From an uncultured Clostridia bacterium (GTDB lineage Bacteria > Bacillota > Clostridia > Oscillospirales > CAG-382), in the NCBI GenBank assembly GCA_944375955.1, contig CALWBE010000016.1:9405-73404 (forward strand): 64,000 nt of DNA. Direction: 5' to 3'. The first letter of the stretch is position 1. Each line of letters opens with the position of its first letter. The translations under genes and the position numbers were made by a program. Shown one piece after another: positions 2 to 19,113 of this stretch. The notes below the pieces were generated by a model. That model saw nothing but the letters and a program-made list of their open reading frames with translations, did no database searches and was not told the origin of the DNA.

Positions 2-445
2 TTCGCTGCGGCAGAAGCGGCTGATATTCAGAATGAAATTATTAATTATGCTGATATCCCTGAATTCTCAATTCTCGGTGCCGTACCTACCGCCGAAGGT
101 GCCGCAGCAGAAATACCAAAACTAACCGGAAAAACAGTATCCGGTTCGGTTATACTTGTAACCGGCTGCGGCCGTGTCGGAAAACAGCTTTCCATCCTTC
201 TAAAATCCATGAACGCCGACGTATACGTCTCTGCACGCAAAAACGCAGATATTTCATGGATAGACGCTAACGGTATGAAGCCCCTCAGGACTTCTTGCAT
301 ATCTGACTGCAATATCGCTTTTGACATCATATGCAATACCGTTCCCGCCCTGATATTTGACAAAAAGACGCTTGAAAACCTCAAGGGTAATCCATCGATA
401 CTTGAACTCGCTTCAAAGCCCTACGGGGCGGGTTTTAAATTTTGA
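2..445 (+). CDS. dpaA: dipicolinate synthase subunit A (DpaA/SpoVFA), 5'/central part; starts upstream of the window and is interrupted at about 416-439
   Basis: The frame from nt 2 is open: FAAAEAADIQ...IPEFSILGAVPTAEGAAAE...VILVTGCGRVGKQLSILLKS...YVSARK...ICNTVPALIF...ILELASKP, then YGAGFKF-stop. It matches the SpoVFA Rossmann core (IPTAEG, GxGRxG, INTIPA, DLASKPGG) but lacks the last ~50 aa. Confidence 0.85.
   Translation, partial: FAAAEAADIQNEIINYADIPEFSILGAVPTAEGAAAEIPKLTGKTVSGSVILVTGCGRVGKQLSILLKSMNADVYVSARKNADISWIDANGMKPLRTSCISDCNIAFDIICNTVPALIFDKKTLENLKGNPSILELASKPYGAGFKF
415..439 (+). repeat. left junction repeat inside dpaA (candidate attL core)
   Basis: AAG CCC TAC GGG GCG GGT TTT AAA (416-439) aligns codon-for-codon with AAA CCT GCG GGG GTG GAT TTT AAA (18958-18981), 17/24 identical. 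It has an internal dyad AAAGCCC-N8-GGGTTTT (415-436). Confidence 0.6.
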
Positions 446-526
446 TAAAGAAAGTGAAAAACTCATTAAGTCCCGTTTTTCTTCATTGCGGTCAAATAAA
501 ACCGCCGCAAAAACAGCGTCAAGTTA

Positions 527-566
527 AAAGCTCCATCAAAAGGCAGAAGTCCTTTGATGGAGCTTT
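527..566. terminator. strong hairpin, probable bidirectional terminator (symporter 3' end / truncated dpaA ORF)
   Basis: GCTCCATCAAAAGG...CCTTTGATGGAGC, a 13-bp stem flanked by A/T runs on both sides. Confidence 0.6.
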
Positions 567-620
567 TATATAAAAATAATATTAGTATAATTAAATATTA
601 TAGACCAGCACGTGCCAATA

Positions 621-2234
621 TCAGTTCTTACCGAGGCATTCGGTAACATCGACTGTAACTTTTTCTTCGTAGCACTCAAACATTTCTTCTACAGATTTTC
701 TATCAAGCTTCTTTGTAAACAGGCTTACCAAAGGCACAAGAATCATTCCCCCAACCATGGCAAATACTCCGGAATACAGTGAGTTTTTAAATACAAATCC
801 CAGTATCCCGCCATTTACGCTTATTGCACCCAAAGATATCAAAAGCTGTATTATTTCAAGTACCGTGCCGTATGCAAAACATACTGCGACAGCTGCTTTA
901 GTAACTCTTTTCCAATAAAGTCCGTAAAGGAACGGGGCAAGAAATGCACCCGCCAGAGCACCCCATGAGACTCCCATCATCTGGGCTATAAAAGTAAAGT
1001 TAAACGTGTCCTTTACAACAGCTATAACTGCCGATACAACAACAAAAAATACGATAAAAAGTCTAAGGATAAAAATTGTTTTCTTTTCGCTTGTTATATT
1101 TTTGCCTTTTTTCTTTAACGCAGGCATTATGACATCAAGGGTAAGTGTTGAACTTGACGTTAAGACAAGAGAGGAAAGAGTTGACATTGATGCTGCAAGG
1201 ACCAACACTATTACAACTGCTATTATAATACCAGGCAGAGTAGAAAGCATTACGGGAATTATATTGTCATTCATTATTTTTCCGCCGCTGTAAAGTTTAT
1301 CTGCAAATTCAGGTGTGTCATACAGCCTTCCGAATCCTCCAAGAAAATAGCACCCGCCTGCAACTATTATTGCAAATACCGTTGAAATTATCGTTCCTTT
1401 TCGTATTGAGTCTTCATTATTTATAGAATAAAACTTTCCTACCATCTGCGGCAATCCCCATGTGCCGAGTGAAGTAAGCAAAACCACAAACAAGAGAAAT
1501 ACCGGATCAGGACCAAAAAACGATGCAAAGGCTCCCTGCATTCCGGCATCCGGATTTGCCGCGTCTAACGGGATCTCTGATAATCTGGTGTACGCCTCTA
1601 TGAATCCACCGTTTGAATTTAATACTGCTGCAACCACCGCAATTATTCCCAAAAGCATTATTATTCCCTGTATGAAGTCATTTATCGCCGTTGCCATATA
1701 TCCGCCGAAAATCACATATAATCCCGTAAGAGCTGCCATAACCGCTATCACTACCCAGTATGGTATTCCAAATGCCATTCCGAACAGGCTTGATAGACCG
1801 TTGTACAATGATGCCGTATATGGTATAAGAAACACAAAAACAATAACAGATGCCGCTATTTTCAAGGCACCGGAATCGTATCTCTTCTCGAAAAAGTCAG
1901 GCATAGTCTTGCTCTCAAGATGCTGTGTCATAACTCTTGTCCTTCTGCCAAGTATCGTCCATGCAAGAAGCGACCCTATAAACGCATTTCCCAATCCAAT
2001 CCATGTAGACGCCAGTCCGAAATTCCATCCAAATTGACCGGCATACCCTACAAAAATAACTGCAGAAAAATATGATGTTCCGAAAGCAAATGCCGTAAGC
2101 CAAGGCCCTACAGATCTACCTCCAAGCACAAAGCCTTCGACATCCTTTGAATGACGCCTGCAGTAAAATCCGACAGCTATCATCACCGCAAAAAATACTA
2201 TCAGCAGAGCTGCCGTTAAAATTTTTGTTTCCAT
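621..2234 (-). CDS. sodium:solute symporter family (SSF, PutP/PanF-like) transporter
   Basis: 537 aa polytopic membrane protein. The N-terminal GGRSVGPWLTAFAFGTSYFSAVIFVGYAGQ region is typical of SSF. Substrate unknown; the upstream Tyr T-box suggests tyrosine or a related compound. Confidence 0.8.
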   Translation of the reverse strand: METKILTAALLIVFFAVMIAVGFYCRRHSKDVEGFVLGGRSVGPWLTAFAFGTSYFSAVIFVGYAGQFGWNFGLASTWIGLGNAFIGSLLAWTILGRRTRVMTQHLESKTMPDFFEKRYDSGALKIAASVIVFVFLIPYTASLYNGLSSLFGMAFGIPYWVVIAVMAALTGLYVIFGGYMATAINDFIQGIIMLLGIIAVVAAVLNSNGGFIEAYTRLSEIPLDAANPDAGMQGAFASFFGPDPVFLLFVVLLTSLGTWGLPQMVGKFYSINNEDSIRKGTIISTVFAIIVAGGCYFLGGFGRLYDTPEFADKLYSGGKIMNDNIIPVMLSTLPGIIIAVVIVLVLAASMSTLSSLVLTSSSTLTLDVIMPALKKKGKNITSEKKTIFILRLFIVFFVVVSAVIAVVKDTFNFTFIAQMMGVSWGALAGAFLAPFLYGLYWKRVTKAAVAVCFAYGTVLEIIQLLISLGAISVNGGILGFVFKNSLYSGVFAMVGGMILVPLVSLFTKKLDRKSVEEMFECYEEKVTVDVTECLGKN

Positions 2235-2280
2235 TTTTATCCCTTCTTTCTTTTATTTTTTATGGAAGACGGATAAATGG

Positions 2281-2575
2281 AAAAAAATACCGTCCTCCGT
2301 TAAGAGGACGGAAAATAATCCGTGTTACCACCTCAATTTACCGATACGTTACCGCAGCGGCCTCATCAGGCACAAAAATCTCATGCCTTATTGCTATAAC
2401 GGGCAAACCCGGCGCAGTCTACTTTTCAGTACTCCATTAATAAGCCTATGGCAGTATCTGTTTTCGGTGCGCAGCTAACAGGATGTATTCGCTTTTGCCT
2501 CTTTACGCTGCCTTACACCTGCCGGAAGCTCTCTTTAGAAAATCAGCAAAGCTACTTGTTCCCGCTCATCGCTTC
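2281..2575 (-). promoter_or_regulatory. T-box riboswitch leader, specifier UAC (Tyr), controlling the SSF transporter
   Basis: The minus-strand leader contains GCGATGAG...AGTA, an AGAGAG box and a GGTGTAA distal loop. The specifier loop is GAA-TAC-A (codon complement at 2485-2487). The T-box is AAATTGAGGTGGTAACACGG; UGGU fits discriminator A73 of tRNA-Tyr. The terminator is CCGTCCTC-loop-GAGGACGG plus a T7 run. Confidence 0.75.
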
Positions 2576-2588
2576 TATATTGTTATGT

Positions 2589-2677: not shown

Positions 2678-3586
2678 TTAATCTGAAAGCCTTAATTTTT
2701 TCATTCTTTTTTCAGCCTTTAAAAACAGTTCGCTTTCTACTAACGGCGCATGAGTTCCACAGACTTTATAATACTGCTCCGGACGGCATTTTCTCCGTTT
2801 ATCTGTTTTATAGTTTATTTTCGTTACAAAACCCTGAGTCAAATCTCCTTTATATGTGGGATTTGCAAGTATCCTCTTTATCATCACGGAATTCCATTTA
2901 TTGCTTTTTTGCCTATTGTCGCTTTTCATTCTCGACGGAGTCTTTATTCCGTCCGCAGTAAGTCCGCATGCTATGGCAAGCATGCTTTTTCCCGAAACAA
3001 ATTCAAGAAATATCCTTCGTACAACTCCCGCACAGCGTTCATCAGGTATCAAAAGATTTTTATCTTCTTCTGACTTTTTATATCCGTACGGTGCAGAGCT
3101 TCCTATAAATTTCCCTGCAGCTCTTTTGGAATCAAGCGCGGTCCTTACCTTTCTGCTTATATCCTTGGCATACAAGTCGTTAAATACAGCGCGGAACGGT
3201 ATCATGTCGTTTCCGTATCCGTCCCTCTCTGTATCTATCCCGTCATTTACCGCTATATACCTGATTCCGTTTACCGGAAAAAAACGCTCAATGTACTCTC
3301 CGGTTGCAATATAATCCCTGCCAAGTCTTGACATATCCTTTGTTAAAATAACTTTGAAATTTCCTTTTAATGCATCATTTACCATTCTCTTAAATTCCGG
3401 TCTTTCAAAATTCGTTCCAGTATACCCGTCGTCTATATATATTTCAGCTATCTCAAAGCCATATTTTCGGCAGTAATCTGTCAAAAACAACTTTTGCGAA
3501 AGAATGCTGTCAGATTCGCCGCCTGCTCCGTCGTCTCTTGAAAGGCGCAAATAAAGTGCGGCTTTATTTCCTTTCAATAAAAACAC
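2678..3586 (-). CDS. serine recombinase, large-serine-recombinase type (resolvase catalytic domain + recombinase domain) that ends before the zinc-ribbon/coiled-coil domain
   Basis: AALYLRLSRDDGAGGESDSILSQ contains the catalytic Ser motif of TnpX/TndX/SpoIVCA-like LSRs. DDGYTGTNFERPEFKRM, LTKDMSRLGRDY, IAVNDGIDT, SAPYGYKK and THAPLVESELF mark the recombinase domain. At 302 aa it is short of the ~450-550 aa typical for LSRs. The likely start is TTG at 3577 (GGGAGG SD 8 nt upstream) rather than GTG at 3586. Confidence 0.8.
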   Translation of the reverse strand: MFLLKGNKAALYLRLSRDDGAGGESDSILSQKLFLTDYCRKYGFEIAEIYIDDGYTGTNFERPEFKRMVNDALKGNFKVILTKDMSRLGRDYIATGEYIERFFPVNGIRYIAVNDGIDTERDGYGNDMIPFRAVFNDLYAKDISRKVRTALDSKRAAGKFIGSSAPYGYKKSEEDKNLLIPDERCAGVVRRIFLEFVSGKSMLAIACGLTADGIKTPSRMKSDNRQKSNKWNSVMIKRILANPTYKGDLTQGFVTKINYKTDKRRKCRPEQYYKVCGTHAPLVESELFLKAEKRMKKLRLSD

Positions 3587-3622
3587 CTCCCGAAAAAGCT
3601 CTTTATATACTTATTCGGGAGG
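3586..3622 (-). terminator. hairpin + T-run after proX; its 3' arm contains the recombinase SD
   Basis: Minus strand: CCTCCCGAA-19 nt-TTCGGGAGG followed by TGTTTTTATTG. The GGGAGG in the 3' arm is the only SD for the recombinase TTG/GTG start. Confidence 0.5.
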
Positions 3623-3653
3623 CTTATTTTTAATTCGCGAAAGTAAAACCTTA

Positions 3654-4202
3654 TCAAAGATCTACTACAGTATATGTATGCTTCATGGCAGGTATTATCT
3701 TTTCAATCATATCAAATGTTCGTATACGCAGGCTTGATGTGTTGACACACGGATGGCAACCTATATATTCGCTATTCAGAACATCTCTGTCAATCAGCAG
3801 TCGTACTTTTCCATTTTTGTCATTCATCAGTCCCATAACACTTACCGACCCGGGCGTTACGCCGAGATATTCCTGCATATGTCCGCTGTCCGCAAACGAC
3901 AGCCTTGATGATGATATCTGTGCTGAAAGATCCTTTGTCTTAAAAATCTTATCCTCAGGTATCATAAGCAAATAAAATGATGTCTGCTGTCTGTTGCATA
4001 AAAACAAATTCTTACATATAACTGCATCTAATACCTCATCTATATCCCTGCACACTTCCATTGTCATTGCCGGATCGTGATCAGCACGCCGGTATGAAAT
4101 TCCGAGAGCGTCTAAAAAATCGTATACCCTCATTTCTGTTTCACTGCGTCCTTTTGAATCTAAAGGCCGTCCCTCACACATTTCTATTTTCATTTTTATC
4201 AT
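3654..4202 (-). CDS. YbaK/ProX-type aminoacyl-tRNA editing (prolyl-tRNA synthetase-associated) domain protein
   Basis: VYDFLDALGISYRRADHDPAMTMEV...CKNLFLCNRQ...LGVTPGSVSVMGL...IGCHPCVNTSSL matches the ProX/YbaK fold family. The best-supported start is ATG 4193 (AAGGA 8 nt upstream). Confidence 0.7.
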   Translation of the reverse strand: MIKMKIEMCEGRPLDSKGRSETEMRVYDFLDALGISYRRADHDPAMTMEVCRDIDEVLDAVICKNLFLCNRQQTSFYLLMIPEDKIFKTKDLSAQISSSRLSFADSGHMQEYLGVTPGSVSVMGLMNDKNGKVRLLIDRDVLNSEYIGCHPCVNTSSLRIRTFDMIEKIIPAMKHTYTVVDL

Positions 4203-5000: not shown

Positions 5001-7709
5001 ATGTCAGCACAGTATGAAATCGTCGACAGCGTTGAAAAACTTGAACAGGCTATTGCGAAAGTTAGAAAAGCACAACAGATTTTCGCTACCTATACGCAGG
5101 AACAGGTAGACAAAATTTTTCTTGCCGCTGCGACAGCTGCAAACAAAGCGCGTATACCGCTTGCAAAATTTGCGGTAGAAGAAACAGGTATGGGAGTAGT
5201 TGAAGATAAGGTCATTAAAAATCATTATGCTTCCGAATATATTTACAACGCCTACAAAAACACTAAAACCTGTGGAGTAATCGAGGAAGACAAAGCATAT
5301 GGAATTAAGAAAATTGCAGAACCCGTCGGTGTTATCTGCGCTGTTATTCCGACTACCAATCCAACTTCCACTGCTATTTTTAAAACGCTTATATCGCTCA
5401 AGACACGCAACGGAATTATTATAAGTCCTCATCCGCGTGCAAAACAGTCTACTATTGCTGCTGCAAAGGTAGTCCTTGAAGCTGCAGTAGCTGCTGGAGC
5501 TCCCGATGGAATAATCAGCTGGATAGATATCCCCTCTCTCGAAATGACTAATCTTCTCATGAAAGAAGCAGATATAATTCTTGCAACAGGCGGACCCGGA
5601 ATGGTAAAAGCCGCTTATTCTAGCGGAAAGCCTGCTGTAGGTGTCGGAGCCGGAAATACTCCCGCTATAATCGACGATACGGCCGATATTCTGCTCGCTG
5701 TAAACTCTATCATACATTCAAAAACATTTGACAACGGTATGATATGCGCTTCCGAGCAGTCTGTTATCGTTCTTGAATCTATTTATGACGCCGTTAAAGA
5801 AGAATTCGCTTCACGCGGATGCTATTTCTTAAATCCCGAAGAAACAGAAAAAGTCCGCAAAACTATTATCATTAACGGCGCTCTCAATGCTAAAATAGTA
5901 GGTCAAAAGGCTGCCACCATTGCCAAACTTGCAGGAGTAACGGTTCCGGAAGGCACTAAAATAATTATCGGAGAAGTAGAAAGCGTCGATCTTTCTGAAG
6001 AATTTGCTCATGAAAAACTCTCCCCCGTTCTTGCAATGTATAAGGCAAAAGATATACACGATGCGTTCGAAAAAGCCGAAAGACTTATAGCGGACGGCGG
6101 TTATGGTCACACATCTTCTATTTATCTAAATGCAGTTACGGAAAAAGAAAAGCTTGATGAATTTGCATCTCGCATGAAAACCTGTCGTATACTTGTCAAT
6201 ACTCCCTCTTCCCAGGGCGGTATCGGAGATCTTTACAACTTTAAACTTGCGCCTTCACTTACCCTCGGATGCGGCTCTTGGGGCGGAAACAGTGTTTCTG
6301 AAAACGTTGGCGTAAAACATCTCATTAACATTAAAACCGTTGCCGAGAGGAGAGAAAATATGCTTTGGTTCCGTGCACCTGAAAAAATATATATCAAAAA
6401 AGGCTGTCTGCCGGTCGCCCTTGAGGAACTCAGATCGGTTATGGGCAAAAAACGTGCTTTTATCGTCACTGACAGCTTCCTTTATAAAAACGGATATACG
6501 AAACCTATTACTGATAAACTCGAAGAAATGGGCATCGCTTATACCACTTTCTCAGACGTCGCTCCAGATCCTACACTCGCTTGCGCTAAGGCCGGTGCCG
6601 AACTCATGAGATCCTTCGCTCCTGACTGCATTATTGCTATCGGAGGCGGTTCAGCTATGGATGCCGGAAAAATTATGTGGGTGCTTTATGAACATCCCGA
6701 AGCTGACTTCATGGATATGGCTATGCGCTTCGTTGATATCCGCAAGAGAATTTATACATTCCCGAAAATGGGTGAAAAAGCTTACTTTATCGCCATTCCT
6801 ACTTCAGCAGGTACCGGCTCTGAAGTTACTCCTTTTGCTGTTATAACAGATGAAAAATCCGGCGTTAAATATCCTCTCGCCGATTATGAGCTTCTTCCTA
6901 AAATGGCTATTATTGATGCCGACTTCCATATGACTGCTCCTAAAGGACTTACTGCAGCCTCCGGTATTGATGCTGTTACTCACGCGCTTGAAGCATATGC
7001 TTCTGTAATGGCGACGGATTATACCGATTCTCTCGCTCTGCGCGCTCTTAAAGTTATTTTCGAATATCTTCCTATTGCTTATGAAAACGGTCCCAACGAT
7101 CCTGTCGCTCGTGAAAAAATGGCGAATGCCGCTACTATGGCAGGTATGGCATTTGCTAATGCTTTCCTCGGTGTATGCCACTCGATGGCTCATAAGCTCG
7201 GTGCATTCCATCACCTGCCTCACGGTGTAGCAAATGCCTTAATGATCGATGAGGTACTGCGTTTCAATGCAGCTGAAACCCCTGTTAAAATGGGAACTTT
7301 CTCTCAGTATGATCATCCTCATACTCTCGCGCGCTATGCAGAAGTAGCCGACTATCTCGGAATTCCCGGAAAAACCGACAGTGAAAAACTTGAAAATCTT
7401 ATTGCAGCAATCGATGAACTGAAAGTTAAGGTTGGTATAAAACCGACAATAAAAGATTATGTCGCAGATGAAAAAGACTTCCTCGATCGTCTTGATGAAA
7501 TGACTGAACAGGCATTTGACGACCAATGCACCGGCGCAAATCCGCGTTATCCGCTTATGAGCGAAATAAAACAAATGTATCTTAATGCTTATTACGGCAA
7601 AAAATTTGTGGAACTTCCTACTCCGGATGAACGTCAACTTGAATCAAATGATGATGCGCATGATATCAAAAAGCCCTACCGCAAAGCAAAAAACGGCATG
7701 AAGAAATAA
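5001..7709 (+). CDS. adhE: bifunctional acetaldehyde-CoA/alcohol dehydrogenase AdhE
   Basis: 902 aa. It has an N-terminal ALDH domain (PTTNPTSTAIFK, MICASEQS) plus a C-terminal Fe-ADH domain (GGGSAMDAGK, HSMAHKLG). RBS GGAGG lies upstream. Confidence 0.95.
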   Translation: MSAQYEIVDSVEKLEQAIAKVRKAQQIFATYTQEQVDKIFLAAATAANKARIPLAKFAVEETGMGVVEDKVIKNHYASEYIYNAYKNTKTCGVIEEDKAYGIKKIAEPVGVICAVIPTTNPTSTAIFKTLISLKTRNGIIISPHPRAKQSTIAAAKVVLEAAVAAGAPDGIISWIDIPSLEMTNLLMKEADIILATGGPGMVKAAYSSGKPAVGVGAGNTPAIIDDTADILLAVNSIIHSKTFDNGMICASEQSVIVLESIYDAVKEEFASRGCYFLNPEETEKVRKTIIINGALNAKIVGQKAATIAKLAGVTVPEGTKIIIGEVESVDLSEEFAHEKLSPVLAMYKAKDIHDAFEKAERLIADGGYGHTSSIYLNAVTEKEKLDEFASRMKTCRILVNTPSSQGGIGDLYNFKLAPSLTLGCGSWGGNSVSENVGVKHLINIKTVAERRENMLWFRAPEKIYIKKGCLPVALEELRSVMGKKRAFIVTDSFLYKNGYTKPITDKLEEMGIAYTTFSDVAPDPTLACAKAGAELMRSFAPDCIIAIGGGSAMDAGKIMWVLYEHPEADFMDMAMRFVDIRKRIYTFPKMGEKAYFIAIPTSAGTGSEVTPFAVITDEKSGVKYPLADYELLPKMAIIDADFHMTAPKGLTAASGIDAVTHALEAYASVMATDYTDSLALRALKVIFEYLPIAYENGPNDPVAREKMANAATMAGMAFANAFLGVCHSMAHKLGAFHHLPHGVANALMIDEVLRFNAAETPVKMGTFSQYDHPHTLARYAEVADYLGIPGKTDSEKLENLIAAIDELKVKVGIKPTIKDYVADEKDFLDRLDEMTEQAFDDQCTGANPRYPLMSEIKQMYLNAYYGKKFVELPTPDERQLESNDDAHDIKKPYRKAKNGMKK

Positions 7710-7716
7710 GATATAA

Positions 7717-8481: not shown

Positions 8482-8502
8482 TTATTTTCGGAGGATATAC
8501 AA

Positions 8503-8742
8503 ATGAAAGTTACCATTTGCATAGGAAGCTCATGCCACATAAAAGGTTCGCGTCAGGTCGTTGAGCAACTTCAGTATCTTATACGTCAAAAAAATGTTGA
8601 AGACAAAGTTGAACTCGGCGGAACTTTTTGTATGGGAAAATGTCAAATGGGTGTGTGTGTCGGAATCGATGACGAAGTTTTTTCAGTAACACCCGATACA
8701 GTTGATGATTTCTTTGAAAAACAAATTTTGACAAGGATATAA
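8503..8742 (+). CDS. thioredoxin-like [2Fe-2S] ferredoxin domain protein
   Basis: 79 aa with a Cys pattern C-x4-C...C-x3-C (ICIGSSCHIKG ... FCMGKCQ). Confidence 0.7.
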   Translation: MKVTICIGSSCHIKGSRQVVEQLQYLIRQKNVEDKVELGGTFCMGKCQMGVCVGIDDEVFSVTPDTVDDFFEKQILTRI

Positions 8743-8746
8743 GCTT

Positions 8747-9007: not shown

Positions 9008-9013
9008 CCGTAA

Positions 9014-10690: not shown

Positions 10691-11855
10691 TTTATGTGCC
10701 GATATAGGATATAAAAGTGTAAATCACTTCGGCGAACAGCTTTGCGGCGATCATGTTGATATAATTGAACAGGAAGACGGTTCGGAAGTCATCGTTCTTG
10801 CCGACGGACTCGGCAGCGGCGTAAAAGCCAGTATACTTTCTACACTTACATCTAAAATTATCTCTACAATGATGGCATCCGGTCTTCCGCTTGAAGAATG
10901 TGTCTCAACAATCGCCGCAACACTGCCTGTATGTTCGGTGCGCGGAGTTGCTTATTCGACTTTTACTATCATAAACCTTATAAATAATGAAACCGCCGAG
11001 TTTATTCAATATGATAACCCACAGATAATTATGATCAGAAATGAAAAATTTACCGATTATCCGAAATCTGAAATAAATATCGACGGCAAAAAAATATATA
11101 AATCCGTAATAAAGCTCCAGGAAAATGATGTATTTGTCGCTATGAGCGACGGATGTCCTCATGCCGGGATAGGTACCGCATACAATTTTGGCTGGAAATA
11201 TGAAGATATTGCATCGTTTGTAGAAACTATTATTCCGGCAGGATACACGTCAAAAACGCTTTCAACCATACTTATTAACGAATGCACCAAACTTTATGAC
11301 GGCAAGCCGGGCGATGATGCTACAGCTTGTGTTATACGCATTAGAAAAAGAGTACCAATGAACCTGCTGTTCGGTCCGCCTTCAAACCGTGATGACTGCG
11401 GAAGAATGATGTCTCTGTTTTTCTCTAAAGAAGGCAAGCACATAATCTGCGGAGGTACAACTTCTTCAATAGCTGCCGACTATCTTAAAAAACCTCTCCG
11501 ACCAACTCTTAATTTTGAACGCTCTGATGTCCCTCCTATCGCTGAACTTGAGGGCGTTGACCTCGTTACTGAAGGAGTTATAACCGTAAACAAGGTTTTA
11601 GAATATGCCAAAGACTATATTCAGGATAACTCAGGTTATGAAAAATGGAGTTGTGGAAGAGATGGAGCTTCACTTATATGTCGGATGCTTTTTGAAGAAG
11701 CTACTGATATAAACTTCTTTGTAGGCAGAGCCGTTAACCCCGCCCATCAAAACCCGGATCTTCCCATAAATTTCAACATAAAAATGAATCTTGTAAAAGA
11801 ACTTTCCGAATGTCTGAAAAAAATGGGTAAAAAAATAAAGGTAAGCTATTTTTAA
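10683..11855 (+). CDS. PP2C/SpoIIE-family serine phosphatase
   Basis: LCGDHVDIIEQEDGSEVIVLADGLGSGVKASILS and AMSDGCPHAG are PP2C-type metal-binding motifs. It overlaps the hydS stop by 8 nt. Confidence 0.75.
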   Translation: MNDLCADIGYKSVNHFGEQLCGDHVDIIEQEDGSEVIVLADGLGSGVKASILSTLTSKIISTMMASGLPLEECVSTIAATLPVCSVRGVAYSTFTIINLINNETAEFIQYDNPQIIMIRNEKFTDYPKSEINIDGKKIYKSVIKLQENDVFVAMSDGCPHAGIGTAYNFGWKYEDIASFVETIIPAGYTSKTLSTILINECTKLYDGKPGDDATACVIRIRKRVPMNLLFGPPSNRDDCGRMMSLFFSKEGKHIICGGTTSSIAADYLKKPLRPTLNFERSDVPPIAELEGVDLVTEGVITVNKVLEYAKDYIQDNSGYEKWSCGRDGASLICRMLFEEATDINFFVGRAVNPAHQNPDLPINFNIKMNLVKELSECLKKMGKKIKVSYF

Positions 11856-11867
11856 GGAGTATAATAA

Positions 11868-13292
11868 ATGAGAAAATTTGATACCAAGGTACAGTATCTT
11901 AAATATAAGGTTCTGCGTGAAGTTGCAAGGCAAGCCTGGAACGACACTCTTCTCGACAATGTTCTTGAAATTCCTAAAAAGATAGTTCCGGGAAAAACGC
12001 CGACTATGCGTTGCTGCGTCTATAAAGAACGTGCAATACTTTCGGAACGAGTACATCTTGCCATGGGCGGAAATAAAGAAAATCCGAATGTTATTGAGGT
12101 AATAGAAATCGCCTGCGATGAATGTCCGGCTGCCGGATATTCTGTTACCGATTCATGCAGAGGCTGTCTTGCTCATAGGTGTGAAGATGTCTGCAAGCGC
12201 GGAGCAATATCGTTTGATCACAACCATGTTGCTCATATCGATAAAACAAAGTGCGTCGAATGCGGTATGTGTGCTAAAGTTTGTCCTTATACCGCCATTA
12301 TAAATCGCAAACGTCCTTGTCAGAATGCATGCAAAATACACGCAATTTCTATCAATGAAGAAAACGCAGCTACAATAGACAATGAAAAGTGCACTTCATG
12401 CGGTGCATGCGTTTATCAATGTCCTTTCGGTGCTATCAGCGATAAATCTTACATCTTGAATGTTATAGATATGCTGAAAAAAAGCTGTGAAGGTAAAAAT
12501 TATAAGATGTATGCAATAGTCGCTCCATCTATTTCAAGCCAGTTCAATTATGCAAAACTCGGTCAGGTAATAACCGGTCTTAAAAAGCTTGGATTCTTTA
12601 CCGTGGTTGAAGCTGCTCTCGGAGCAGATATGGTCGCGCAAGCCGAATCAAAAGAACTTTATGAAAAAGGTTTTCTGACAAGTTCTTGTTGCCCTGCTTT
12701 TGTATCTTATATTAAATCGAATTTTCCTGCTCTTGTTCAATATATTTCTCATAATCTTTCTCCTATGGCTACTATCGCAAAATATATAAAGGAAACAGAC
12801 AAAACTGCAAAAACTGTATTTATTGGTCCTTGTACGGCAAAAAAAGCTGAAATCCAGCTTGATACCGTAAAACCATATATAGATTCGGTAATGACATTTG
12901 AGGAACTTCAGGCTCTTTTTGACAGCCGCGACATAGACATAACTACTCTTGAAGAAAGTATCCTTGACAACGCGTCATATTTCGGAAGAATATTCGCCAG
13001 AAGCGGAGGGCTTTCTGATGCCGTGGCACAAGGTCTTATCGAACAAGGACTTACAGATTTTAAATTAAAGGCATGCGCCTGCGACGGAATAGAAGCCTGC
13101 CGCACCGCTTTACTCAAAAAAAGCAAAAATGTGCTTGACGCAAACTTTATTGAAGGCATGGCATGTGTAGGAGGCTGCATAGGAGGCGCCGGATGTCTGA
13201 CTCACGGCGAAAAAAACAAAGATGAGGTAGACAAATACGGAAAAGAAGCTTATGAAAAAACAATAACAGAAGCTATTTCAGTTCTTAAATAG
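11868..13292 (+). CDS. [FeFe]-hydrogenase, monomeric group-B-like catalytic subunit
   Basis: It has ferredoxin Cys clusters and the H-cluster motifs TSSCCPAF, FIGPCTAKKAE and GMACVGGCIGGAGC. The N-terminus MRKFDTKVQYLKYKVLREV is typical of the B-type family. Confidence 0.85.
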   Translation: MRKFDTKVQYLKYKVLREVARQAWNDTLLDNVLEIPKKIVPGKTPTMRCCVYKERAILSERVHLAMGGNKENPNVIEVIEIACDECPAAGYSVTDSCRGCLAHRCEDVCKRGAISFDHNHVAHIDKTKCVECGMCAKVCPYTAIINRKRPCQNACKIHAISINEENAATIDNEKCTSCGACVYQCPFGAISDKSYILNVIDMLKKSCEGKNYKMYAIVAPSISSQFNYAKLGQVITGLKKLGFFTVVEAALGADMVAQAESKELYEKGFLTSSCCPAFVSYIKSNFPALVQYISHNLSPMATIAKYIKETDKTAKTVFIGPCTAKKAEIQLDTVKPYIDSVMTFEELQALFDSRDIDITTLEESILDNASYFGRIFARSGGLSDAVAQGLIEQGLTDFKLKACACDGIEACRTALLKKSKNVLDANFIEGMACVGGCIGGAGCLTHGEKNKDEVDKYGKEAYEKTITEAISVLK

Positions 13293-14813: not shown

Positions 14814-15123
14814 AAATTTAAAACCAAGCAATACAATATTGAACTTTTTTGAGTTCCTTTTCGACGTTTTGTTCTCAATAGAAATCATTGAATGTTTAAA
14901 TGAATAGCCCAATAATTATATTTAATTTGGAAAGGTGATGATATAATAAGAGCAAAAGTAATTGGTATCTTACTCATATTGTGGACATTCTTGGTATTCT
15001 GATGGAACTAATAATGTTTGAGAATATTGGTATTGCTTGCATATTGGAGGCATAAAGGGGTTTGCTGTCTGGCATTGGCTTTGTGTCTTATACATCGAAA
15101 TAAATAATAAAGGAGAAATTAAA

Positions 15124-16041
15124 ATGAAAAGAACATTATCAGTTATCCTGGCAATTATTTTAGCTATGTCATTGTTAGCGTGCAGTAGTTATTCTGATGA
15201 AGACATTAAGGAGCCATCTAATGTTGCTACTGGCAGCAACGCTGGAGAAGGACAGAAGCAAGAGCAAGTAGAGGAAACAGAGGTACCTGAGGAAACAGAA
15301 GTAACTATTAATGAGACCGTTCTTGTTGATGAGGCTGGCATAAAAGTTACTGCTAAAAGCCTTGAAGTTGACGGGATTTTTGGTCCCGAAATCAAACTGC
15401 TTATTGAGAATAATTCTGGTAAAGACCTAACTTTCCAATGTCGCAATGCTTCCGTTAATGGCTACATGGTTGAAACCATGATGTCTGTTGATGTTGTGAA
15501 TGGTAAGAAAGCAAATGATAGTTTAACTTTTATGAAATCCGATTTTGAGGCGTGTGGGATTGAAAAAATTGCTGATATGGAAATTGCATTCCATATTTTT
15601 GATATGGCTGAATGGGAAACTTATTTGGATACTGCCTCAATCCAGATCAAGACTTCTATCGCTGATAACTTTGAGTACACCTATGATGATAGCGGAGATT
15701 TGGCCTATGAAGGAAATGGTATAAAGATTATAATCAAGGGACTTGCAGAAAATGAATCCATATTTGGTCCCAGCATCGTGACTTATATTGAAAACACTGG
15801 AGATAAGGATATAACTGTCCAAACAAGAGATGTATCCATTAATGGATTTATGGCGTCTGCCATATTCTCCTGCGATGTACTTGCAGGCAAACGTGCCGTG
15901 GATACTATTACTTTCATGGAGTCTGACCTTGAGGAAAATGAAATTACTGCGATTGAGGATATAGAACTGTCATTCCATATTTTTGACTCTGATGACTGGA
16001 AAACTATTGTTGATACAGAAATCGTAAAAATTAGCTTCTGA
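15124..16041 (+). CDS. lipoprotein with two tandem copies of an uncharacterised ~110-aa domain
   Basis: AAAGGAG RBS lies before ATG 15124. The signal peptide MKRTLSVILAIILAMSLLA-CSS has a lipobox. An acidic linker is followed by repeat A (15319-15651) and repeat B (15697-16038), which are mutually alignable. Confidence 0.7.
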   Translation: MKRTLSVILAIILAMSLLACSSYSDEDIKEPSNVATGSNAGEGQKQEQVEETEVPEETEVTINETVLVDEAGIKVTAKSLEVDGIFGPEIKLLIENNSGKDLTFQCRNASVNGYMVETMMSVDVVNGKKANDSLTFMKSDFEACGIEKIADMEIAFHIFDMAEWETYLDTASIQIKTSIADNFEYTYDDSGDLAYEGNGIKIIIKGLAENESIFGPSIVTYIENTGDKDITVQTRDVSINGFMASAIFSCDVLAGKRAVDTITFMESDLEENEITAIEDIELSFHIFDSDDWKTIVDTEIVKISF

Positions 16042-16233: not shown

Positions 16234-16241
16234 TTTGTATT

Positions 16242-17528
16242 TTATTTTTTAGGAATTATTTTTTCAGCTCCTCCCATATACGGGCGAAGAGCAACAGGAA
16301 TATTTACGCTTCCGTCTTCATTAAGGTTATTTTCAAGAAATGCTATAAGCATTCTTGGAGGTGCAACAACTGTATTGTTGAGTGTATGAGCAAGATATTT
16401 TGAATTCTTTCCGCTTACACGGATCTTTAATCTTCTTGCCTGCGCATCTCCGAGATTCGAGCAGCTTCCGACCTCAAAATATTTCTTTTGTCTCGGCGAC
16501 CATGCCTCAACATCAAGTGATTTTACTTTAAGATCGGCAAGATCTCCCGAACAGCATTCAAGCGTTCTTACAGGAATATCCATAGAGCGGAAAAGGTCGA
16601 CTGTATTGCGCCACAATTTTTCAAACCACATCGGACTTTCCTCGGGTTTGCATACTACAATCATTTCCTGCTTTTCAAACTGGTGTATGCGGTAAACTCC
16701 GCGCTCTTCTATGCCGTGCGCTCCCTTCTCCTTACGGAAACACGGCGAATAGCTTGTCAGCGTCTGCGGAAGCTGTTCCTCCGGAATTATCTGATCAATA
16801 AACTTTCCTATCATAGAATGCTCTGAAGTACCTATAAGATAAAGGTCTTCTCCTTCTATCTTATACATCATAGCTTCCATTTCGGCAAAACTCATAACTC
16901 CGGTAACAACATCCGAACGAATCATAAACGGAGGTACACAATAGGTAAAACCGCGGTTTATCATAAAATCACGCGCATATGAAATAACTGCCGAATGCAG
17001 TCTTGCTATATCGCCCATAAGATAATAAAACCCGTTGCCGGCAACACGGCGCGCACTGTCAAGATCTATACCGTCAAAGCGTTCCATTATATCAGTATGA
17101 TACGGAATTTCAAAATCGGGCACAACCGGGTCCCCGAACTTCTCTATCTCTACATTCTCGCTGTCGTCTTTTCCTATCGGCACTGACGGATCTATTATCT
17201 GAGGTATTACCATCATTATTTTCTTGATTTTTTCTTCGTATTCCGACTCAAGCGCTTCGCATTCCGCAAGACGCGCCGCCTGCTCGTTAACTTTTTTCTT
17301 CATTTCTTCGGCTTCTTCTTTTTTACCCTGCCCCATAAGCGCGCCGATCATCTTTGAGCATTTGTTACGGTCTGCCCTGAGTCCGTCGGCTTCAAGCTTT
17401 ACAGCACGGGATTTCGCATCAAGCTCAATAACTTCATCTACCAAAGGCAGCTTTGAGTCCTGAAACTTATTTCTGATATTTTGTTTTACAGCGTCCGGAT
17501 TTTCACGCAAAAATTTAATGTCTATCAT
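16242..17528 (-). CDS. serS: seryl-tRNA synthetase
   Basis: 428 aa. MIDIKFLRENPD..., an N-terminal coiled-coil arm and a class II core (TSEHSMIG, FRKEKGAHG, GSCSNLGDAQARR). Confidence 0.95.
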   Translation of the reverse strand: MIDIKFLRENPDAVKQNIRNKFQDSKLPLVDEVIELDAKSRAVKLEADGLRADRNKCSKMIGALMGQGKKEEAEEMKKKVNEQAARLAECEALESEYEEKIKKIMMVIPQIIDPSVPIGKDDSENVEIEKFGDPVVPDFEIPYHTDIMERFDGIDLDSARRVAGNGFYYLMGDIARLHSAVISYARDFMINRGFTYCVPPFMIRSDVVTGVMSFAEMEAMMYKIEGEDLYLIGTSEHSMIGKFIDQIIPEEQLPQTLTSYSPCFRKEKGAHGIEERGVYRIHQFEKQEMIVVCKPEESPMWFEKLWRNTVDLFRSMDIPVRTLECCSGDLADLKVKSLDVEAWSPRQKKYFEVGSCSNLGDAQARRLKIRVSGKNSKYLAHTLNNTVVAPPRMLIAFLENNLNEDGSVNIPVALRPYMGGAEKIIPKK

Positions 17529-17597: not shown

Positions 17598-17858
17598 AAA
17601 AAATCAGAGTCCTTCCCTATATTGTAATGGGACGAAAGACTCCGTGTTGCCACCCATATTGCCGCACAATATTTCTATTTTAACAAATACTAATGCTAAT
17701 ACTAATAATGCGGCCTCTCATTTTACGCGCTGTAAGGGGCGCCTCCCGAAACTCTTCGCTTCATGCTCCGAAAGTGGAAAAGGTAAACTGTGCCAACTGT
17801 TTGCACCTCACACAGCCTCTCTTAAGACAATAATTTACCGTTTCTTTCATCATAGCTT
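17598..17858 (-). promoter_or_regulatory. T-box riboswitch leader, probable specifier UCC (Ser), controlling serS
   Basis: Minus strand: GCTATGATGAAAG...GGTAAA, AGAGAG and GGTGCAA. The specifier loop is UUUUCCA (codon complement at 17776-17778). The T-box is AATATGGGTGGCAACACGG; UGGC fits discriminator G73 of tRNA-Ser. A terminator hairpin plus T6 follows. Confidence 0.7.
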
Positions 17859-17956
17859 TATTATTATACATTATATGCTTTAAAAATGCAATAGAGTGCA
17901 TTAATTTTATACTAAATGTAACAATTTGTGCCCAATTTTATATATTATTCCTTATT

Positions 17957-18901
17957 TTAGTCCTTTATATACTCCCTTTTTGTCAGACAAAGTTCTGTTA
18001 TAAATCTTCTGTCAAGCTCAGTAAGCTTATAATCATTTCGGTATATAAGCACGTCCTTATATATTTTTTTATTATCCGGAAAGCTCCTTTGTTCCAGTCC
18101 ATATTTATTAAGTACTTTCTCAGGCACCGGTGATACCCACATAAATGCGTCTTTATTATGCGACAGTATCTCAAGTTCGCTCGCCCGTTCAAAAACATAT
18201 ATTCGGCGTATTATATCATCCGGAAGTTCTTCCTTCTTTACCTGAGCCATTGAAAGCGAAGGAACATATGGGTCTCCGTGTGCAATCTCTATATATGGCC
18301 TCAAATCTGAATATCTGATCTCATCCTTTCCTGCTAAAGGGTTTTCTTTATTTATAAGCAAAACATATTGAAATTCTGTAACAAGCTCATAATACAACCC
18401 CTTTTCTTCAAGCATTTCCTTAAAATATCCTTCATGTTTTTCTGCATATCTTATTATACCTAATTTATAATCCATCTGAAGTATATTGTTTAGTGTCCTT
18501 GACGAATTTGTTTCCTTATACATGAGTTCTGCCGGTTCAGCGCTCAATGAAGTCGAAAATCTTGCGAATGCCTCGGAAATATAACAAGCCCGCGGCACTG
18601 AAATCGAAAATCTTTGCTTCAGCGGTCTACCAGCTTTATACATGTTTTCAACATCATCTATCTGACTTAATATCTTTTTTGCATATCCTATAAATTCTTC
18701 ACCTTGAGGAGTTAAAACCATTCCTTTTGCCGATCTGTCAAATATTGTTATTCCAAGATCGCTTTCCAGTTCTTTTATGGAGCGGCTGAGGTTCGGCTGA
18801 GCAATAAGAAGCGTTTCGGAAGCTTTGTTTATTGAGCCGACTCTTGCTACCTCTACGGCATATTTCATATGAAGTATATTCAAAATTTTTCTGCCTTTCA
18901 T
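17957..18901 (-). CDS. LysR-family transcriptional regulator
   Basis: N-terminal wHTH LHMKYAVEVARVGSINKASETLLIAQPNLSRSIKELE plus a substrate-binding domain. An alternative TTG start at 18883 would give the canonical LysR N-terminus. Confidence 0.8.
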   Translation of the reverse strand: MKGRKILNILHMKYAVEVARVGSINKASETLLIAQPNLSRSIKELESDLGITIFDRSAKGMVLTPQGEEFIGYAKKILSQIDDVENMYKAGRPLKQRFSISVPRACYISEAFARFSTSLSAEPAELMYKETNSSRTLNNILQMDYKLGIIRYAEKHEGYFKEMLEEKGLYYELVTEFQYVLLINKENPLAGKDEIRYSDLRPYIEIAHGDPYVPSLSMAQVKKEELPDDIIRRIYVFERASELEILSHNKDAFMWVSPVPEKVLNKYGLEQRSFPDNKKIYKDVLIYRNDYKLTELDRRFITELCLTKREYIKD

Positions 18902-18956
18902 GTTTATTGAAACAAGTATATCATATTATAATTTTTTTTTCAATACCGCAGCATTT

Positions 18957-18981
18957 AAAACCTGCGGGGGTGGATTTTAAA
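18957..18981 (+). repeat. right junction repeat (candidate attR core)
   Basis: AAA CCT GCG GGG GTG GAT TTT AAA is the partner of 416-439. It has the dyad AAAACC-N9-GGATTTT (18957-18978). Confidence 0.6.
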
Positions 18982-19113
18982 ACCGCTGAAAAGCTTTCGA
19001 TTAAAACACATATCGCTTCCGGTCTGCCAGGCAAAATTGCTCCTTACAGTGCCGGCAAAATTATGTACACATGTATAAATAATATTCTCTCAGAAAGGGG
19101 GTTCACTGTATGA
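18958..19113 (+). CDS. dpaA: dipicolinate synthase subunit A, 3' fragment (last ~50 codons) with no start codon of its own
   Basis: KPAGVDFKTAEKLSIKTHIASGLPGKIAPYSAGKIMYTCINNILSERGFTV matches the SpoVFA C-terminus (KPGGTDFxYAEKxGIKALLAPGLPGIVAPKTAGxI). Its stop overlaps the dpaB ATG (ATGA). The upstream part of ORF 18832-19113 has no DpaA similarity. Confidence 0.8.
   Translation, partial: KPAGVDFKTAEKLSIKTHIASGLPGKIAPYSAGKIMYTCINNILSERGFTV

Follow-up and report, generated by a model that had tools for sequence, protein, structure and literature searches.

The window, that is, the whole stretch of 64,000 nucleotides analyzed here, begins at codon 107 of dpaA (spoVFA). The 5' part of the gene (2..427, plus strand), native through ...ELASKPYG, was recognized from its translation, from the DpaA models NF006162 and TIGR02853, and by alignment to intact relatives. 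In the translation of the window, the frame starting at nt 2 reads ...NPSILELASKPYGAGFKF*, with the stop codon at 443–445. The 3' part is found on the same strand at 18970..19113 and consists of 47 codons (VDFKTAEK...GLPGK...TV) and a stop, the frame up to 19113 being translated as ...KPAGVDFKTAEKLSIKTHIASGLPGKIAPYSAGKI...TV*. Its stop codon overlaps the start of dpaB (spoVFB; 19110..19670, plus strand; NF006161, 240.8 bits against a cut-off of 156) in an ATGA at 19110–19113. Both the splitting of dpaA into same-strand pieces by 18,542 bp and the coupling of the 3' piece to dpaB had been claimed in an initial annotation of this DNA, and both were found where it had placed them.

Removal of the 18,542-bp insert puts dpaA back in one frame, as had also been proposed. 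The break point, however, had been set immediately after Lys-Pro. Since relatives with an intact dpaA read ELASKPYG(V/I)DF at the junction, Tyr-Gly still belongs to the native sequence, which ends at nt 427, and the two parts meet as ...KPYG|VDF.... The following nucleotides (428..445, plus strand) encode AGFKF and a stop, an element-derived tail specified by the P' half-site described below, and a YG(A/E)GF(K/N) tail is common to the truncated DpaA of many lineages. An in-frame core, GGGG, is common to both ends (425–428 and 18967–18970). The junction expected after joining dpaA is ...AAGCCCTACGGGGTGGATTTTAAAAC..., and that expected on the excised circle is ...AAAACCTGCGGGGGCGGGTTTTAAAT.... 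The joined partial protein matches positions 115–291 of the 297 of NF006162 in a single stretch. When the N-terminus was taken from L011, which is of the same species, the full join had 295 aa and matched positions 4–291 of 297, again in a single stretch, as the initial annotation had anticipated, with a score of 226.5 bits versus 169.7 bits for the truncated form. All seven DpaA variants in the species cluster of the window are the 253-aa truncated form.

The serine recombinase gene reported 2.2 kb inside the left end of the insert is indeed present (2678..3577, minus strand, TTG start; 2.25 kb in). The analogy with large serine recombinases did not hold for the enzyme itself, a protein of 299 aa with only PF00239 and PF07508, that is, the catalytic N-terminal domain and the recombinase domain, and with neither zinc ribbon nor coiled coil. 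It matches the first 282 of the 542 positions of the CcrB model and aligns with residues 35–295 of the 545 of SprA. Its stop is clean, a promoter and the T-box come next, and no zinc-ribbon remnant is left in the short recombinases, among which the catalytic residues are invariant. In a Foldseek search with its AF2 model (pLDDT 83.9), the top places were taken by SPbeta integrase complexes, this integrase being SprA by sequence match, and by the phiC31 catalytic-plus-recombinase fragment.

Between the stop of the ybaK-like gene and the recombinase start lies a terminator-like hairpin (3581..3637, minus strand; −23.5 kcal/mol, z −5.5). Its 3' arm holds the GGAGG ribosome-binding site of the recombinase, so the site is masked, and equivalent hairpins with differing stem sequences occur in 7/7 related species. 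A candidate sigmaE-like promoter is composed of GAATTAA (3636–3630), a 14-nt spacer, and AATAAGTA (3615–3608) within the hairpin loop, and the motif recurs with the exact 14-nt spacer in 6/8. Upstream of dpaA, by 37–46 nt, a sigmaK-like CATAnnnTA box was found in all six lineages (6/6). Both are tentative promoter assignments, made from short motifs by comparison with the consensus sequences of the two sigma factors.

The insert is bounded by attL (412..439, plus strand; TTCAAAGCCCTACGGGGCGGGTTTTAAA) and attR (18954..18981, plus strand; TTTAAAACCTGCGGGGGTGGATTTTAAA), 28-bp imperfect palindromes identical at 20 of 28 positions, with the central GG at 425–426 and 18967–18968, respectively. From left to right, attL consists of a dpaA (B) arm and an element (P') arm, and attR of an element (P) arm and a dpaA (B') arm. 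The two sites are directly oriented, all four half-sites are alike, and reconstruction of attP yields a 13-GG-13 palindrome. With three mismatches permitted, attL and attR were the sole matches to the att consensus in the 64 kb, and no match was obtained in 100 shuffles. The element-side half-sites of short-recombinase elements are kept to about 13 nt out from the center and not further; the distal TTATCCAAA motif, present in both arms of long-recombinase elements, is gone from the clade of the window. No accessory sites were found.

Toward the left end of the insert, a gene encodes an SSF family sodium:solute symporter (621..2234, minus strand; PF00474), with a T-box leader upstream (2301..2578, minus strand; Rfam RF00230, 104 bits). 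This symporter is present in 8/8 core-clade (Group 1) loci and is cargo of nearly every short-recombinase element examined; in the deeper-branching L181, the recombinase directly adjoins dpaA'. Beyond the recombinase is the gene of a protein with a YbaK/aminoacyl-tRNA editing domain (3654..4202, minus strand; PF04073), found in six of the eight Group 1 loci and missing from L027 and L032, the latter being a minimal element that, by gene matches, apparently holds only the recombinase and the symporter. The plus-strand segment 5001..16041 is lineage-specific, with no counterpart in those Group 1 relatives that were examined, whose elements measure 3–6 kb, and includes adhE, an APH-type kinase, two small 2Fe-2S proteins, a sensory [FeFe]-hydrogenase-like protein, a PP2C phosphatase, a group B [FeFe] hydrogenase, an FAD oxidoreductase, and a lipoprotein. 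It is followed by serS (seryl-tRNA synthetase; 16242..17528, minus strand; TIGR00414, 407 bits), 93–94% identical throughout the clade, and by a LysR-family regulator (17957..18901, minus strand; PF00126), which is the final gene before attR and lies upstream of dpaB on eight independent contigs. The G+C content of the insert equals that of its flanks. The insert is a vertically inherited chromosomal segment with housekeeping and metabolic genes, not a prophage-like mobile element. Among the clade loci compared, the element has no conserved directionality factor or partner gene.

In dozens of lineages, elements with related serine recombinases interrupt dpaA at this same codon. The hosts, from gut and rumen, include many uncultured Oscillospiraceae, other Clostridia, and Anaerotruncus massiliensis, whose isolate AT3 is one carrier of a full-length recombinase at dpaA. 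Relatives with 50–54% identical recombinases have full-length enzymes (498–540 aa) at the edge of dpaA elements of 2.6–7 kb, one group of dpaA elements combines a recombinase of about 500 aa with attP arms carrying the distal motif, and some loci hold several recombinase paralogues. The short recombinases (294–306 aa; about 26 protein clusters, 57–99% identity), all lacking PF13408, form one deep clade nested within the dpaA-associated clade, inside the large serine recombinases. For the recombinase, pN was about 0.27 versus a pS of about 0.77, and the least diverged pair had dN 0.107 and dS 0.909; for the orphan 3' dpaA piece, pN was about 0.26 versus a pS of about 0.70, and the motif GLPGK..P.TAG is retained in 8/8 Group 1 fragments. 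Although synonymous sites are saturated, the recombinase, the orphan 3' piece, and the element-side half-sites are conserved. These substitution patterns point to purifying selection, the narrow length range and invariant catalytic residues to a short recombinase that has been kept as such, and the overall conservation indicates that the segment would still be excised to rebuild dpaA, probably in the sporulating mother cell.

The excised junction was also looked for directly. Joined dpaA was not found among 5.8 billion protein clusters, and neither joined dpaA nor the circular junction was found in JGI metagenome contigs or in the fetched related loci. The skin-like dpaA switch suggested in the initial annotation is partly supported, by the recurrence of the split, its conservation, the sigmaK-like promoter, and the spoVFB-splitting precedent vfbin, but its joined or circular form appears in no sequence searched. 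The reading we favor, and hold to be somewhat probable, is that the locus is a domesticated, vertically inherited skin-like switch with a minimal one-way excisase, excision being deduced from the sequence. An ancestral element with a full-length large serine recombinase would have entered a natural palindrome in dpaA, at the codons ASKP(Y/G)GVDF. In the clade of the window, the recombinase would then have lost the half that holds the zinc ribbon and the coiled coil, and the distal motif, the presumed target of that domain, would have disappeared from the element-side att arms. The putative remnant unit is an enzyme of about 297 aa, made up of the catalytic and recombinase domains, plus a pair of near-symmetric 28-bp sites in direct orientation. 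The recombinase would be made early in the mother cell, from the promoter that lies within the terminator hairpin ahead of its gene, and would recombine both sites at the central GG dinucleotides, releasing an 18,542-bp circle and joining dpaA. The sigmaK-like promoter would subsequently transcribe the rebuilt dpaA and the translationally coupled dpaB, leading to dipicolinate (DPA) synthesis, while the element would stay in the forespore chromosome. Without a coiled coil, the enzyme may act as an intramolecular deletase, independent of a recombination directionality factor (RDF) and unable to re-integrate, which fits an immobile element now filled with host genes. A precedent is given by a coiled-coil deletion of the Listeria LI integrase, described as an "unregulated resolvase," which brings about excision with all site pairs but no integration (PMC3783163).

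Several other explanations were weighed. An assembly error, whether chimera or mis-join, was a possibility raised in the initial annotation and has next to no probability as the cause of the split: the source is a metagenome-type assembly and some related scaffolds have N gaps, but six independent contigs contain the attL 28-mer without a mismatch and eight contain that of attR, from differing projects and assemblers, and other species show the same architecture. In addition, identical DpaB is found on 22 contigs and identical recombinase on 14. It is also very improbable that DpaA works as two pieces without rearrangement, a 253-aa N-terminal product associating non-covalently with a 47-aa peptide started at the in-frame GTG 18970. 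Purifying selection on both dpaA pieces would suit such an arrangement, as would the first post-junction codon, which is GTG in 8/8 short-recombinase loci; that codon, however, is GTA or ATA in several long-recombinase loci, and no Shine-Dalgarno sequence lies at a usable distance from GTG 18970. Moreover, dpaB and the 3' piece would be severed from the sigmaK-like dpaA promoter, and the conservation of the recombinase and the element-side half-sites would be left unexplained.

Less improbable, but still unlikely, is a frozen relic in which losing the C-terminal half has inactivated the recombinase, the element is stuck in place, and dpaA is permanently broken, the organism either not sporulating or making DPA via another route, e.g., EtfA; DPA is made without DpaAB in some clostridia (10.1101/2022.02.25.481979). 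Consistent with a relic, the recombinase is without a domain regarded as necessary, ordinary host genes at the G+C of the flanks fill the insert, and the joined form is absent from all sequences searched. A dead system would nevertheless have decayed, whereas at saturated synonymous divergence, over no fewer than eight species and some 26 protein clusters, four features are intact: the 900-nt recombinase ORF; the 47-codon 3' fragment, which has no start codon, along with its ATGA coupling to dpaB; dpaB; and the 13-nt non-coding half-sites. Finally, we give a modest chance to excision being real but catalyzed otherwise, by a full-length large serine recombinase encoded elsewhere or by the short protein with a DNA-binding partner, as subunit or regulator. 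Firmicute genomes often have many recombinases of the same family (Galperin preprint), and some loci here have several paralogues. In the LI integrase, the one large serine recombinase tested in this respect, removal of the zinc-ribbon domain lowered att binding about 25-fold, such truncations being described as deficient (PMC3783163), so the natural enzyme may need compensation or a partner. Against another catalyst, a full-length enzyme would miss its outer contacts on element-side arms lacking the distal motif, purifying selection acts on the short protein, whose catalytic residues are invariant, and no partner gene is clade-wide, as the gene content of L032 also illustrates.

The proposed one-way switch resembles skin in sigK in that a mother-cell gene is split in frame, the serine recombinase is insert-encoded, the sites are direct, and excision restores the ORF. 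The skin recombinase is SpoIVCA in Bacillus subtilis and CD1231, with its RDF, in Clostridioides difficile. Skin elements measure 2.6–48 kb, and the recombinase is all that they have in common. Here, by contrast, the target is dpaA, the enzyme is without the zinc-ribbon and coiled-coil domain of the SpoIVCA type, there is no evident directionality factor, housekeeping and metabolic genes, including serS, make up the cargo instead of prophage remnants, and excision is deduced from the sequence. The gin element in gerE of Bacillus cereus ATCC 10987 is likewise non-prophage, interrupts a mother-cell gene, and has a serine recombinase and an imperfect inverted-repeat att site, but its GirC is a full-size 58-kDa enzyme that requires the directionality factor GirX for excision and can integrate in vitro, whereas the enzyme here has 299 aa. 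SprA of SPbeta, with 9dxh as the closest solved structure to our model (Foldseek E 1e-16), reconstitutes spsM, likewise a sporulation gene, in the mother cell; unlike the enzyme here, it has 545 aa with a zinc-ribbon and coiled-coil part, cannot excise without SprB, and comes from a phage that is still active.

Small serine recombinases (resolvases, Hin, Gin) resemble the short enzyme in having one DNA-binding domain next to the catalytic domain, and their crossover sites have about 26–28 bp with a 2-bp center; in place of their short helix-turn-helix, however, the enzyme here binds DNA with the PF07508 of large serine recombinases. What is described for the LI integrase coiled-coil deletion, intramolecular excision with whichever site pair and no integration, is the behavior proposed here, but the LI deletions are engineered mutants, and it is the full zinc-ribbon deletion (residues 1–264) that shows the weaker DNA binding. 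Also interrupting the two-gene dipicolinate synthase operon is vfbin in spoVFB (dpaB) of Bacillus weihenstephanensis KBAB4, the spoVFB-splitting element that the initial annotation had mentioned correctly, for which rearrangement during sporulation has been reported. It differs in splitting the other subunit gene, in a member of the class Bacilli, and later papers describe it as intervening and prophage-like. If the reading favored here is true, DPA synthesis in this organism would hinge on DNA excision.

The initial annotation had described dpaA (spoVFA) as two same-strand pieces held apart by a recombinase-bearing insert, and this organization was recovered. The frame entering the window at nt 2 ends in NPSILELASKPYGAGFKF and reaches its stop codon at 443–445; the frame ending at 19113 of the same strand closes with KPAGVDFKTAEKLSIKTHIASGLPGKIAPYSAGKIMYTCINNILSERGFTV, and its stop overlaps the dpaB start as ATGA. 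A serine recombinase gene was found inside the insert at 2678–3577 (minus strand), and in silico removal of 18,542 bp between the break points restored the reading frame. The gene is thus split as claimed, but the exact break point had to be moved: it had been placed after ELASKP, and since intact relatives carry ELASKPYG(V/I)DF, the native sequence extends through Tyr-Gly and the exact join lies between KPYG and VDF. With its N-terminus taken from L011, a locus of the same species, the 295-aa joined protein spans positions 4–291 of the 297 of NF006162 in one stretch, the continuous alignment that had been anticipated. Its score is 226.5 bits and that of the truncated protein 169.7, both below the curated cut-off (261). 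The joined fragment built from the window only covers positions 115–291 of 297, also in a single stretch. PF16924 (DpaA_N) was detected in DpaA, and the adjoining dpaB passes its curated model (240.8 bits, cut-off 156).

The boundaries between the element and dpaA are two 28-bp sites, attL (412–439) and attR (18954–18981), which are identical at 20 of 28 positions and have a GGGG core in common. Allowing up to three mismatches, these two were the only matches to the att consensus in the 64 kb, and none occurred in shuffled sequences. Excision between them would create the junction GCTTCAAAGCCCTACGGGGTGGATTTTAAAACCGC in dpaA and the junction GCATTTAAAACCTGCGGGGGCGGGTTTTAAATTTTG in a circle. The truncated DpaA is of 253 aa in all seven variants of the species' protein cluster; among 5.8 billion protein clusters there was no intact DpaA of this species, the nearest full-length proteins being at most 61% identical. 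Neither a joined nor a circular junction was present in any searchable assembly. The exact 35–36-nt patterns of both gave no matches in JGI metagenome contigs, a result that is uninformative for this species because it is found mostly in ENA/Logan data and because a mother-cell variant would rarely assemble.

Most of the closest homologues of the joined DpaA (44–98% identity) end at the same place, with the tail ELASKPYG(A/E)GF(K/N), and a few are intact. A scan with the recombinase, using one genome per species, returned 71 loci, nearly all from uncultured Oscillospiraceae, Clostridia or Bacilli-labelled MAGs of rumen and gut samples, the isolate among them being Anaerotruncus massiliensis AT3, whose element is of the full-length version. 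Mapping the dpaA pieces, dpaB and cargo genes onto these 71 loci defined three groups. Group 1, the window's clade (recombinase 57–65% identical), has elements of about 5–6 kb in the order 5' dpaA piece, symporter, short recombinase, ybaK-like gene (not in L027), serS, 3' dpaA piece and dpaB. Its minimal element (L032) is of about 3 kb and, by gene matches, holds the recombinase and symporter only; the element of the window is an expanded 18.5-kb version, and the deeper-branching loci L180 and L181 are of the same type. Group 2 recombinases (50–54% identical) are mostly full-length, with 498–540 aa, some having 397–450 aa, and are situated at the edge of elements, of 2.6–7 kb, inserted at that same site of dpaA; these likewise carry non-phage cargo, such as the sulfate permease and NAD synthetase of L035. 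Group 3 enzymes (41–47% identical) are mostly full-length, of about 520–535 aa with a few shorter ORFs, and have no dpaA nearby.

In a neighbor-joining tree of dpaA, the relatives with an intact gene are placed among the split lineages. That they lost the element secondarily is suggestive only, because bootstrap support was weak: all split lineages were monophyletic in 3.8% of replicates and the intact lineages in 32%. At two empty sites in intact dpaA (L098 and L099), reading CGGAGTGG or TGGAATAG, the crossover glycine codon is GGA instead of GGG, so that the GGGG core of all split loci is missing there. In L048 (MAG HGM11521, 4575–17711), dpaA is in three pieces, separated by two different elements. 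One is in the usual site, between KPGG and VDF; the other, of about 4.5 kb, lies between NAIPTA and EGA, encodes a recombinase of its own, of 509 aa (31% identical), and is bounded on both sides by a near-perfect direct repeat of 20 bp, AATGCA(A/G)TCCCTACTGCA, with one base differing.

The insert is not a prophage. It carries, from left to right, genes for a sodium:solute symporter behind a T-box leader, the serine recombinase, a YbaK-type editing protein, a small membrane ORF, adhE, an APH-type kinase, two small 2Fe-2S proteins, a sensory hydrogenase-like protein, a PP2C phosphatase, a group B [FeFe] hydrogenase, an FAD oxidoreductase, a lipoprotein (15037–16041), serS and a LysR regulator. 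A phage origin was rejected, as the insert contains no phage genes and the IMG/VR relatives of its recombinase are at most 49% identical, none being beside dpaA pieces. A compositional island was likewise rejected, the G+C content being 0.37–0.44 in the insert versus 0.33–0.43 in the flanks, with one AT-rich intergenic kilobase of 0.28 in the insert. Outside it, the window has the genes of an ordinary chromosome, among them those for nitrogen assimilation, a glycogen operon, pfk, purC, purF, pyrG, galT and obg.

The cargo varies within the species, since the window, L001, L003 and L004 have the lipoprotein gene that follows the FAD oxidoreductase and precedes serS, and L002 and L007 lack it. 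On visual inspection, the specifier context in the T-box leader of the symporter (2301–2578, minus strand) is GAA-UAC-A, which would point to tyrosine; upstream of serS no T-box above threshold was detected in the window, and a T-box-like sequence is found there in L025. At 9014–13292, the gene for the sensory [FeFe]-hydrogenase-like protein (weak PAS match) overlaps that of the PP2C phosphatase (SpoIIE domain), after which comes the group B [FeFe] hydrogenase gene; this cargo looks like a hydrogen-sensing regulatory module.

The 299-aa recombinase contains only PF00239 (80 bits) and PF07508 (72 bits, residues 186–297), covers the first 282 of the 542 positions of the CcrB model and matches the TnpX catalytic domain with an E value of 2.5e-31. 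The catalytic Ser13 is kept, and the catalytic motifs YLRLSRDD and SRLGRD are largely invariant. Its alignment to the 545-aa SprA covers SprA residues 35–295, its end (residue 299) corresponding approximately to residue 295. The AF2 model (pLDDT 83.9) superposes best on the SPbeta integrase complexes (9dxh), identified as SprA by sequence match, on Bxb1 and on the catalytic-plus-recombinase crystal fragment of phiC31. PF13408, the zinc ribbon with embedded coiled coil, was not detected in the protein, and a search of all frames found no zinc-ribbon remnant in the window or in the other short-recombinase loci; 58 long-form loci have the zinc ribbon. Directly after the recombinase stop are an AT-rich promoter and the T-box. 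The short recombinase is a maintained form. In a large protein collection, the best 26 clusters, at least 57% identical, are all of 294–306 aa and lack PF13408, and clusters at or below 55% identity are mostly of about 500 aa and have it. In a neighbor-joining tree, the dpaA-associated enzymes form one clade, inside which the Group 1 short forms are monophyletic, with long internal branches. A frameshifted or decayed gene was rejected on account of the clean stop, the lack of a remnant and the length conserved across clusters; the TTG-start form is the one on record, there being no record of a GTG-start version.

Intermediate dpaA-associated recombinases of 397–450 aa occur in L035, L042, L043, L047 and L049. 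All four of those examined (L035, L042, L043 and L049) keep the start of the zinc ribbon and seem to have a shortened coiled coil, and the intermediate lengths suggest a stepwise reduction of the C-terminal half. Further short recombinases, in L033 (297 aa) and L052 (284 aa), belong to other branches of the clade and may be recent truncations or pseudogenes; the P arm (an element-side half-site) of L052 still has a distal TTATCACCAAA-like motif. Four tandem serine recombinase genes are present in L056 and L086 (about 5050–11400), three of 516–564 aa (35–39% identity) followed by a dpaA-associated one; those of L086 adjoin a dpaA 5' piece. Just after the recombinase stop of L011, at 2536–2615 and 2660–2760, there are an N gap, a duplication and some 60 additional bases, with repeats of TTAAGTGAAAAT, that are missing from the window, the region being variable or hard to assemble.

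When the first two G of the GGGG core are taken as the att center, attP reconstructs to a 13-GG-13 palindrome (TTTAAAACCTGCG-GG-GGCGGGTTTTAAA in the window), and attB is a natural palindrome within the dpaA coding sequence. All four Group 1 half-sites are alike (TT[CT]AAA[AG]YCC...), and conservation of the P' arms extends only about 13 nt outward from the center (ATTTAAAAYCCGCC). The P arms of one Group 1 subclade are similar further upstream, possibly through common descent or because of the serS promoter. Both element-side arms of Group 2 have an inner ATCCRCC and a distal TTATCCAAA about 14–22 nt from the center; on the dpaA arms, a related TCAAA lies nearer to it by about 6 nt, a geometry of attP and attB as described for the zinc-ribbon domain in PMC3783163. 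The distal TTATCCAAA motif is missing from the Group 1 arms. The att sites appear to have changed together with the enzyme.

All six lineages compared, including the window's species and one intact relative, have a CATAnnnTA box 37–46 nt upstream of the dpaA start, with AC about 17 nt above it in three of the six. This short motif is sigmaK-like; in B. subtilis, dpaAB is under sigmaK. Between the upstream gene and the recombinase start, a strong hairpin with a U-run after it was found in all seven Group 1 species (z −4.1 to −8.5), each upstream sequence being folded singly on account of indels between species. The stem sequences vary between species, the 3' arm contains the GGAGG of the recombinase, and six of the seven recombinase genes begin with TTG or GTG. 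Upstream of the recombinase, six of eight species also have [GT]AAT[TC]AA, a spacer of exactly 14 nt and [CA]ATA, the second box being in the hairpin loop; this short motif resembles the sigmaE consensus. Read-through transcripts would terminate and mask the ribosome-binding site of the recombinase; a transcript from the loop promoter would lack the 5' arm, and the site would therefore be exposed. The implied order would be recombinase first and dpaA later, the same as that in which spoIVCA precedes sigK.

No candidate for a directionality factor was found in the short-recombinase clade. Directly upstream of the long recombinase genes of L034, L036–L041, L044, L045 and L047 is a conserved micro-ORF of 27–46 codons (27–38 in the closest set) with the motif M..VKV(I/V)F..NGK.L.DILKQILI.K.R, which is missing from the short-recombinase clade and could encode either a directionality factor or a leader peptide; on reading the sequence of L034, its stop overlaps the recombinase start.

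Synonymous sites have reached saturation among the Group 1 species (pS about 0.7–0.8), and non-synonymous change was far smaller. The pN was about 0.27 for the recombinase, 0.26 for the 3' dpaA fragment (47 codons), 0.19 for dpaB and 0.34 for 5' dpaA, and the least diverged recombinase pair gave a dN of 0.107 versus a dS of 0.909. Every 3' fragment has kept the GLPGK..P.TAG motif and the overlap with dpaB. That a start-less fragment, a recombinase and non-coding half-sites are intact at saturated depth argues that the dpaA pieces are still joined and used.

The locus is best read as an intervening element that has been domesticated and whose minimal recombinase would act on two direct 28-bp sites in the mother cell and delete 18,542 bp, rebuilding dpaA and placing dpaB under the dpaA promoter. 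For LI integrase, PMC3783163 reports that the coiled-coil deletion excised intramolecularly whichever of the four site pairings was used and did not integrate intermolecularly, a variant named "an unregulated resolvase". Because of this precedent, a natural enzyme without the zinc-ribbon/coiled-coil region should need no directionality factor for excision and should never re-integrate, and such one-way excision fits an immobile, vertically inherited element gathering host genes. The same source (PMC3783163) gives an about 25-fold weaker att binding for the zinc-ribbon deletion (residues 1–264), which is the main argument against the sufficiency of the short enzyme. We propose only tentatively, with somewhat less than even confidence, that this catalytic and recombinase-domain derivative is a long-kept, self-sufficient, one-way developmental excisase, acting without a directionality factor on 28-bp symmetric sites. 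Its expression would be gated by the promoter buried in the terminator hairpin, and the element would be locked into the germ line, as proposed here, because it carries host genes such as serS.

That a helper or second recombinase acts in trans is unlikely, if still worth considering. The conservation data count against the locus being a dead relic, which we regard as rather improbable. A two-piece DpaA, its second piece started at the junction GTG, is very hard to credit, since this GTG lacks a usable ribosome-binding site and the conservation of recombinase and sites would be left unexplained. The assembly chimera against which the initial annotation had cautioned can be set aside with near certainty, the exact attL 28-mer being present in six independent contigs and the exact attR in eight; identical DpaB was found on 22 contigs and identical recombinase on 14.

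Like the intervening elements of sporulation genes (skin, SPbeta, vfbin, vrin, gin and yin), the dpaA element carries its own site-specific recombinase, and recombination at the shared att core restores the ORF exactly, here by in silico join. Its logic is that of skin, from which it differs in its target, its recombinase without a zinc-ribbon domain, its symmetric 28-bp sites, the lack of a directionality-factor candidate and its housekeeping cargo. The short recombinase has the N-terminal catalytic domain with nucleophilic serine and the PF07508 after helix E of large serine recombinases, but not their zinc ribbon with embedded coiled coil (PF13408); and whereas these act on asymmetric attP and attB of about 40–50 bp with shifted outer motifs, the Group 1 half-sites are alike and conserved over only about 13 nt. 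Small serine recombinases (resolvase, invertase) have about 180–200 aa and a short C-terminal helix-turn-helix; unlike them, the short recombinase has 299 aa with PF07508 and is nested in a clade of enzymes of about 500 aa. The split sporulation genes listed as of 2023 are sigK, spsM, spoVFB, spoVR, gerE and yabG, and dpaA/spoVFA is unmentioned in the literature examined on split sporulation genes.

If excision holds, dpaA would join the few sporulation genes that are rebuilt through programmed excision of DNA. Far from being a single case, its split is common among uncultured Oscillospiraceae-type Clostridia of gut and rumen. Sporulation in such Clostridia is commonly considered important for host-to-host transmission, and genome surveys scoring sporulation or DPA capacity from dpaA will miscall these lineages because gene callers report a 253-aa truncated DpaA. 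Group 1 is also a natural experiment on the role of the C-terminal half of the recombinase: a 297-aa form without the zinc-ribbon/coiled-coil part is conserved together with shortened symmetric sites and, by analogy, would match the "unregulated resolvase" behavior of engineered coiled-coil deletions. Were the short enzyme active, it would offer a compact deletion tool for which a directionality factor is unnecessary. The locus shows how a mobile element may pass into a fixed chromosomal compartment that accumulates host genes.
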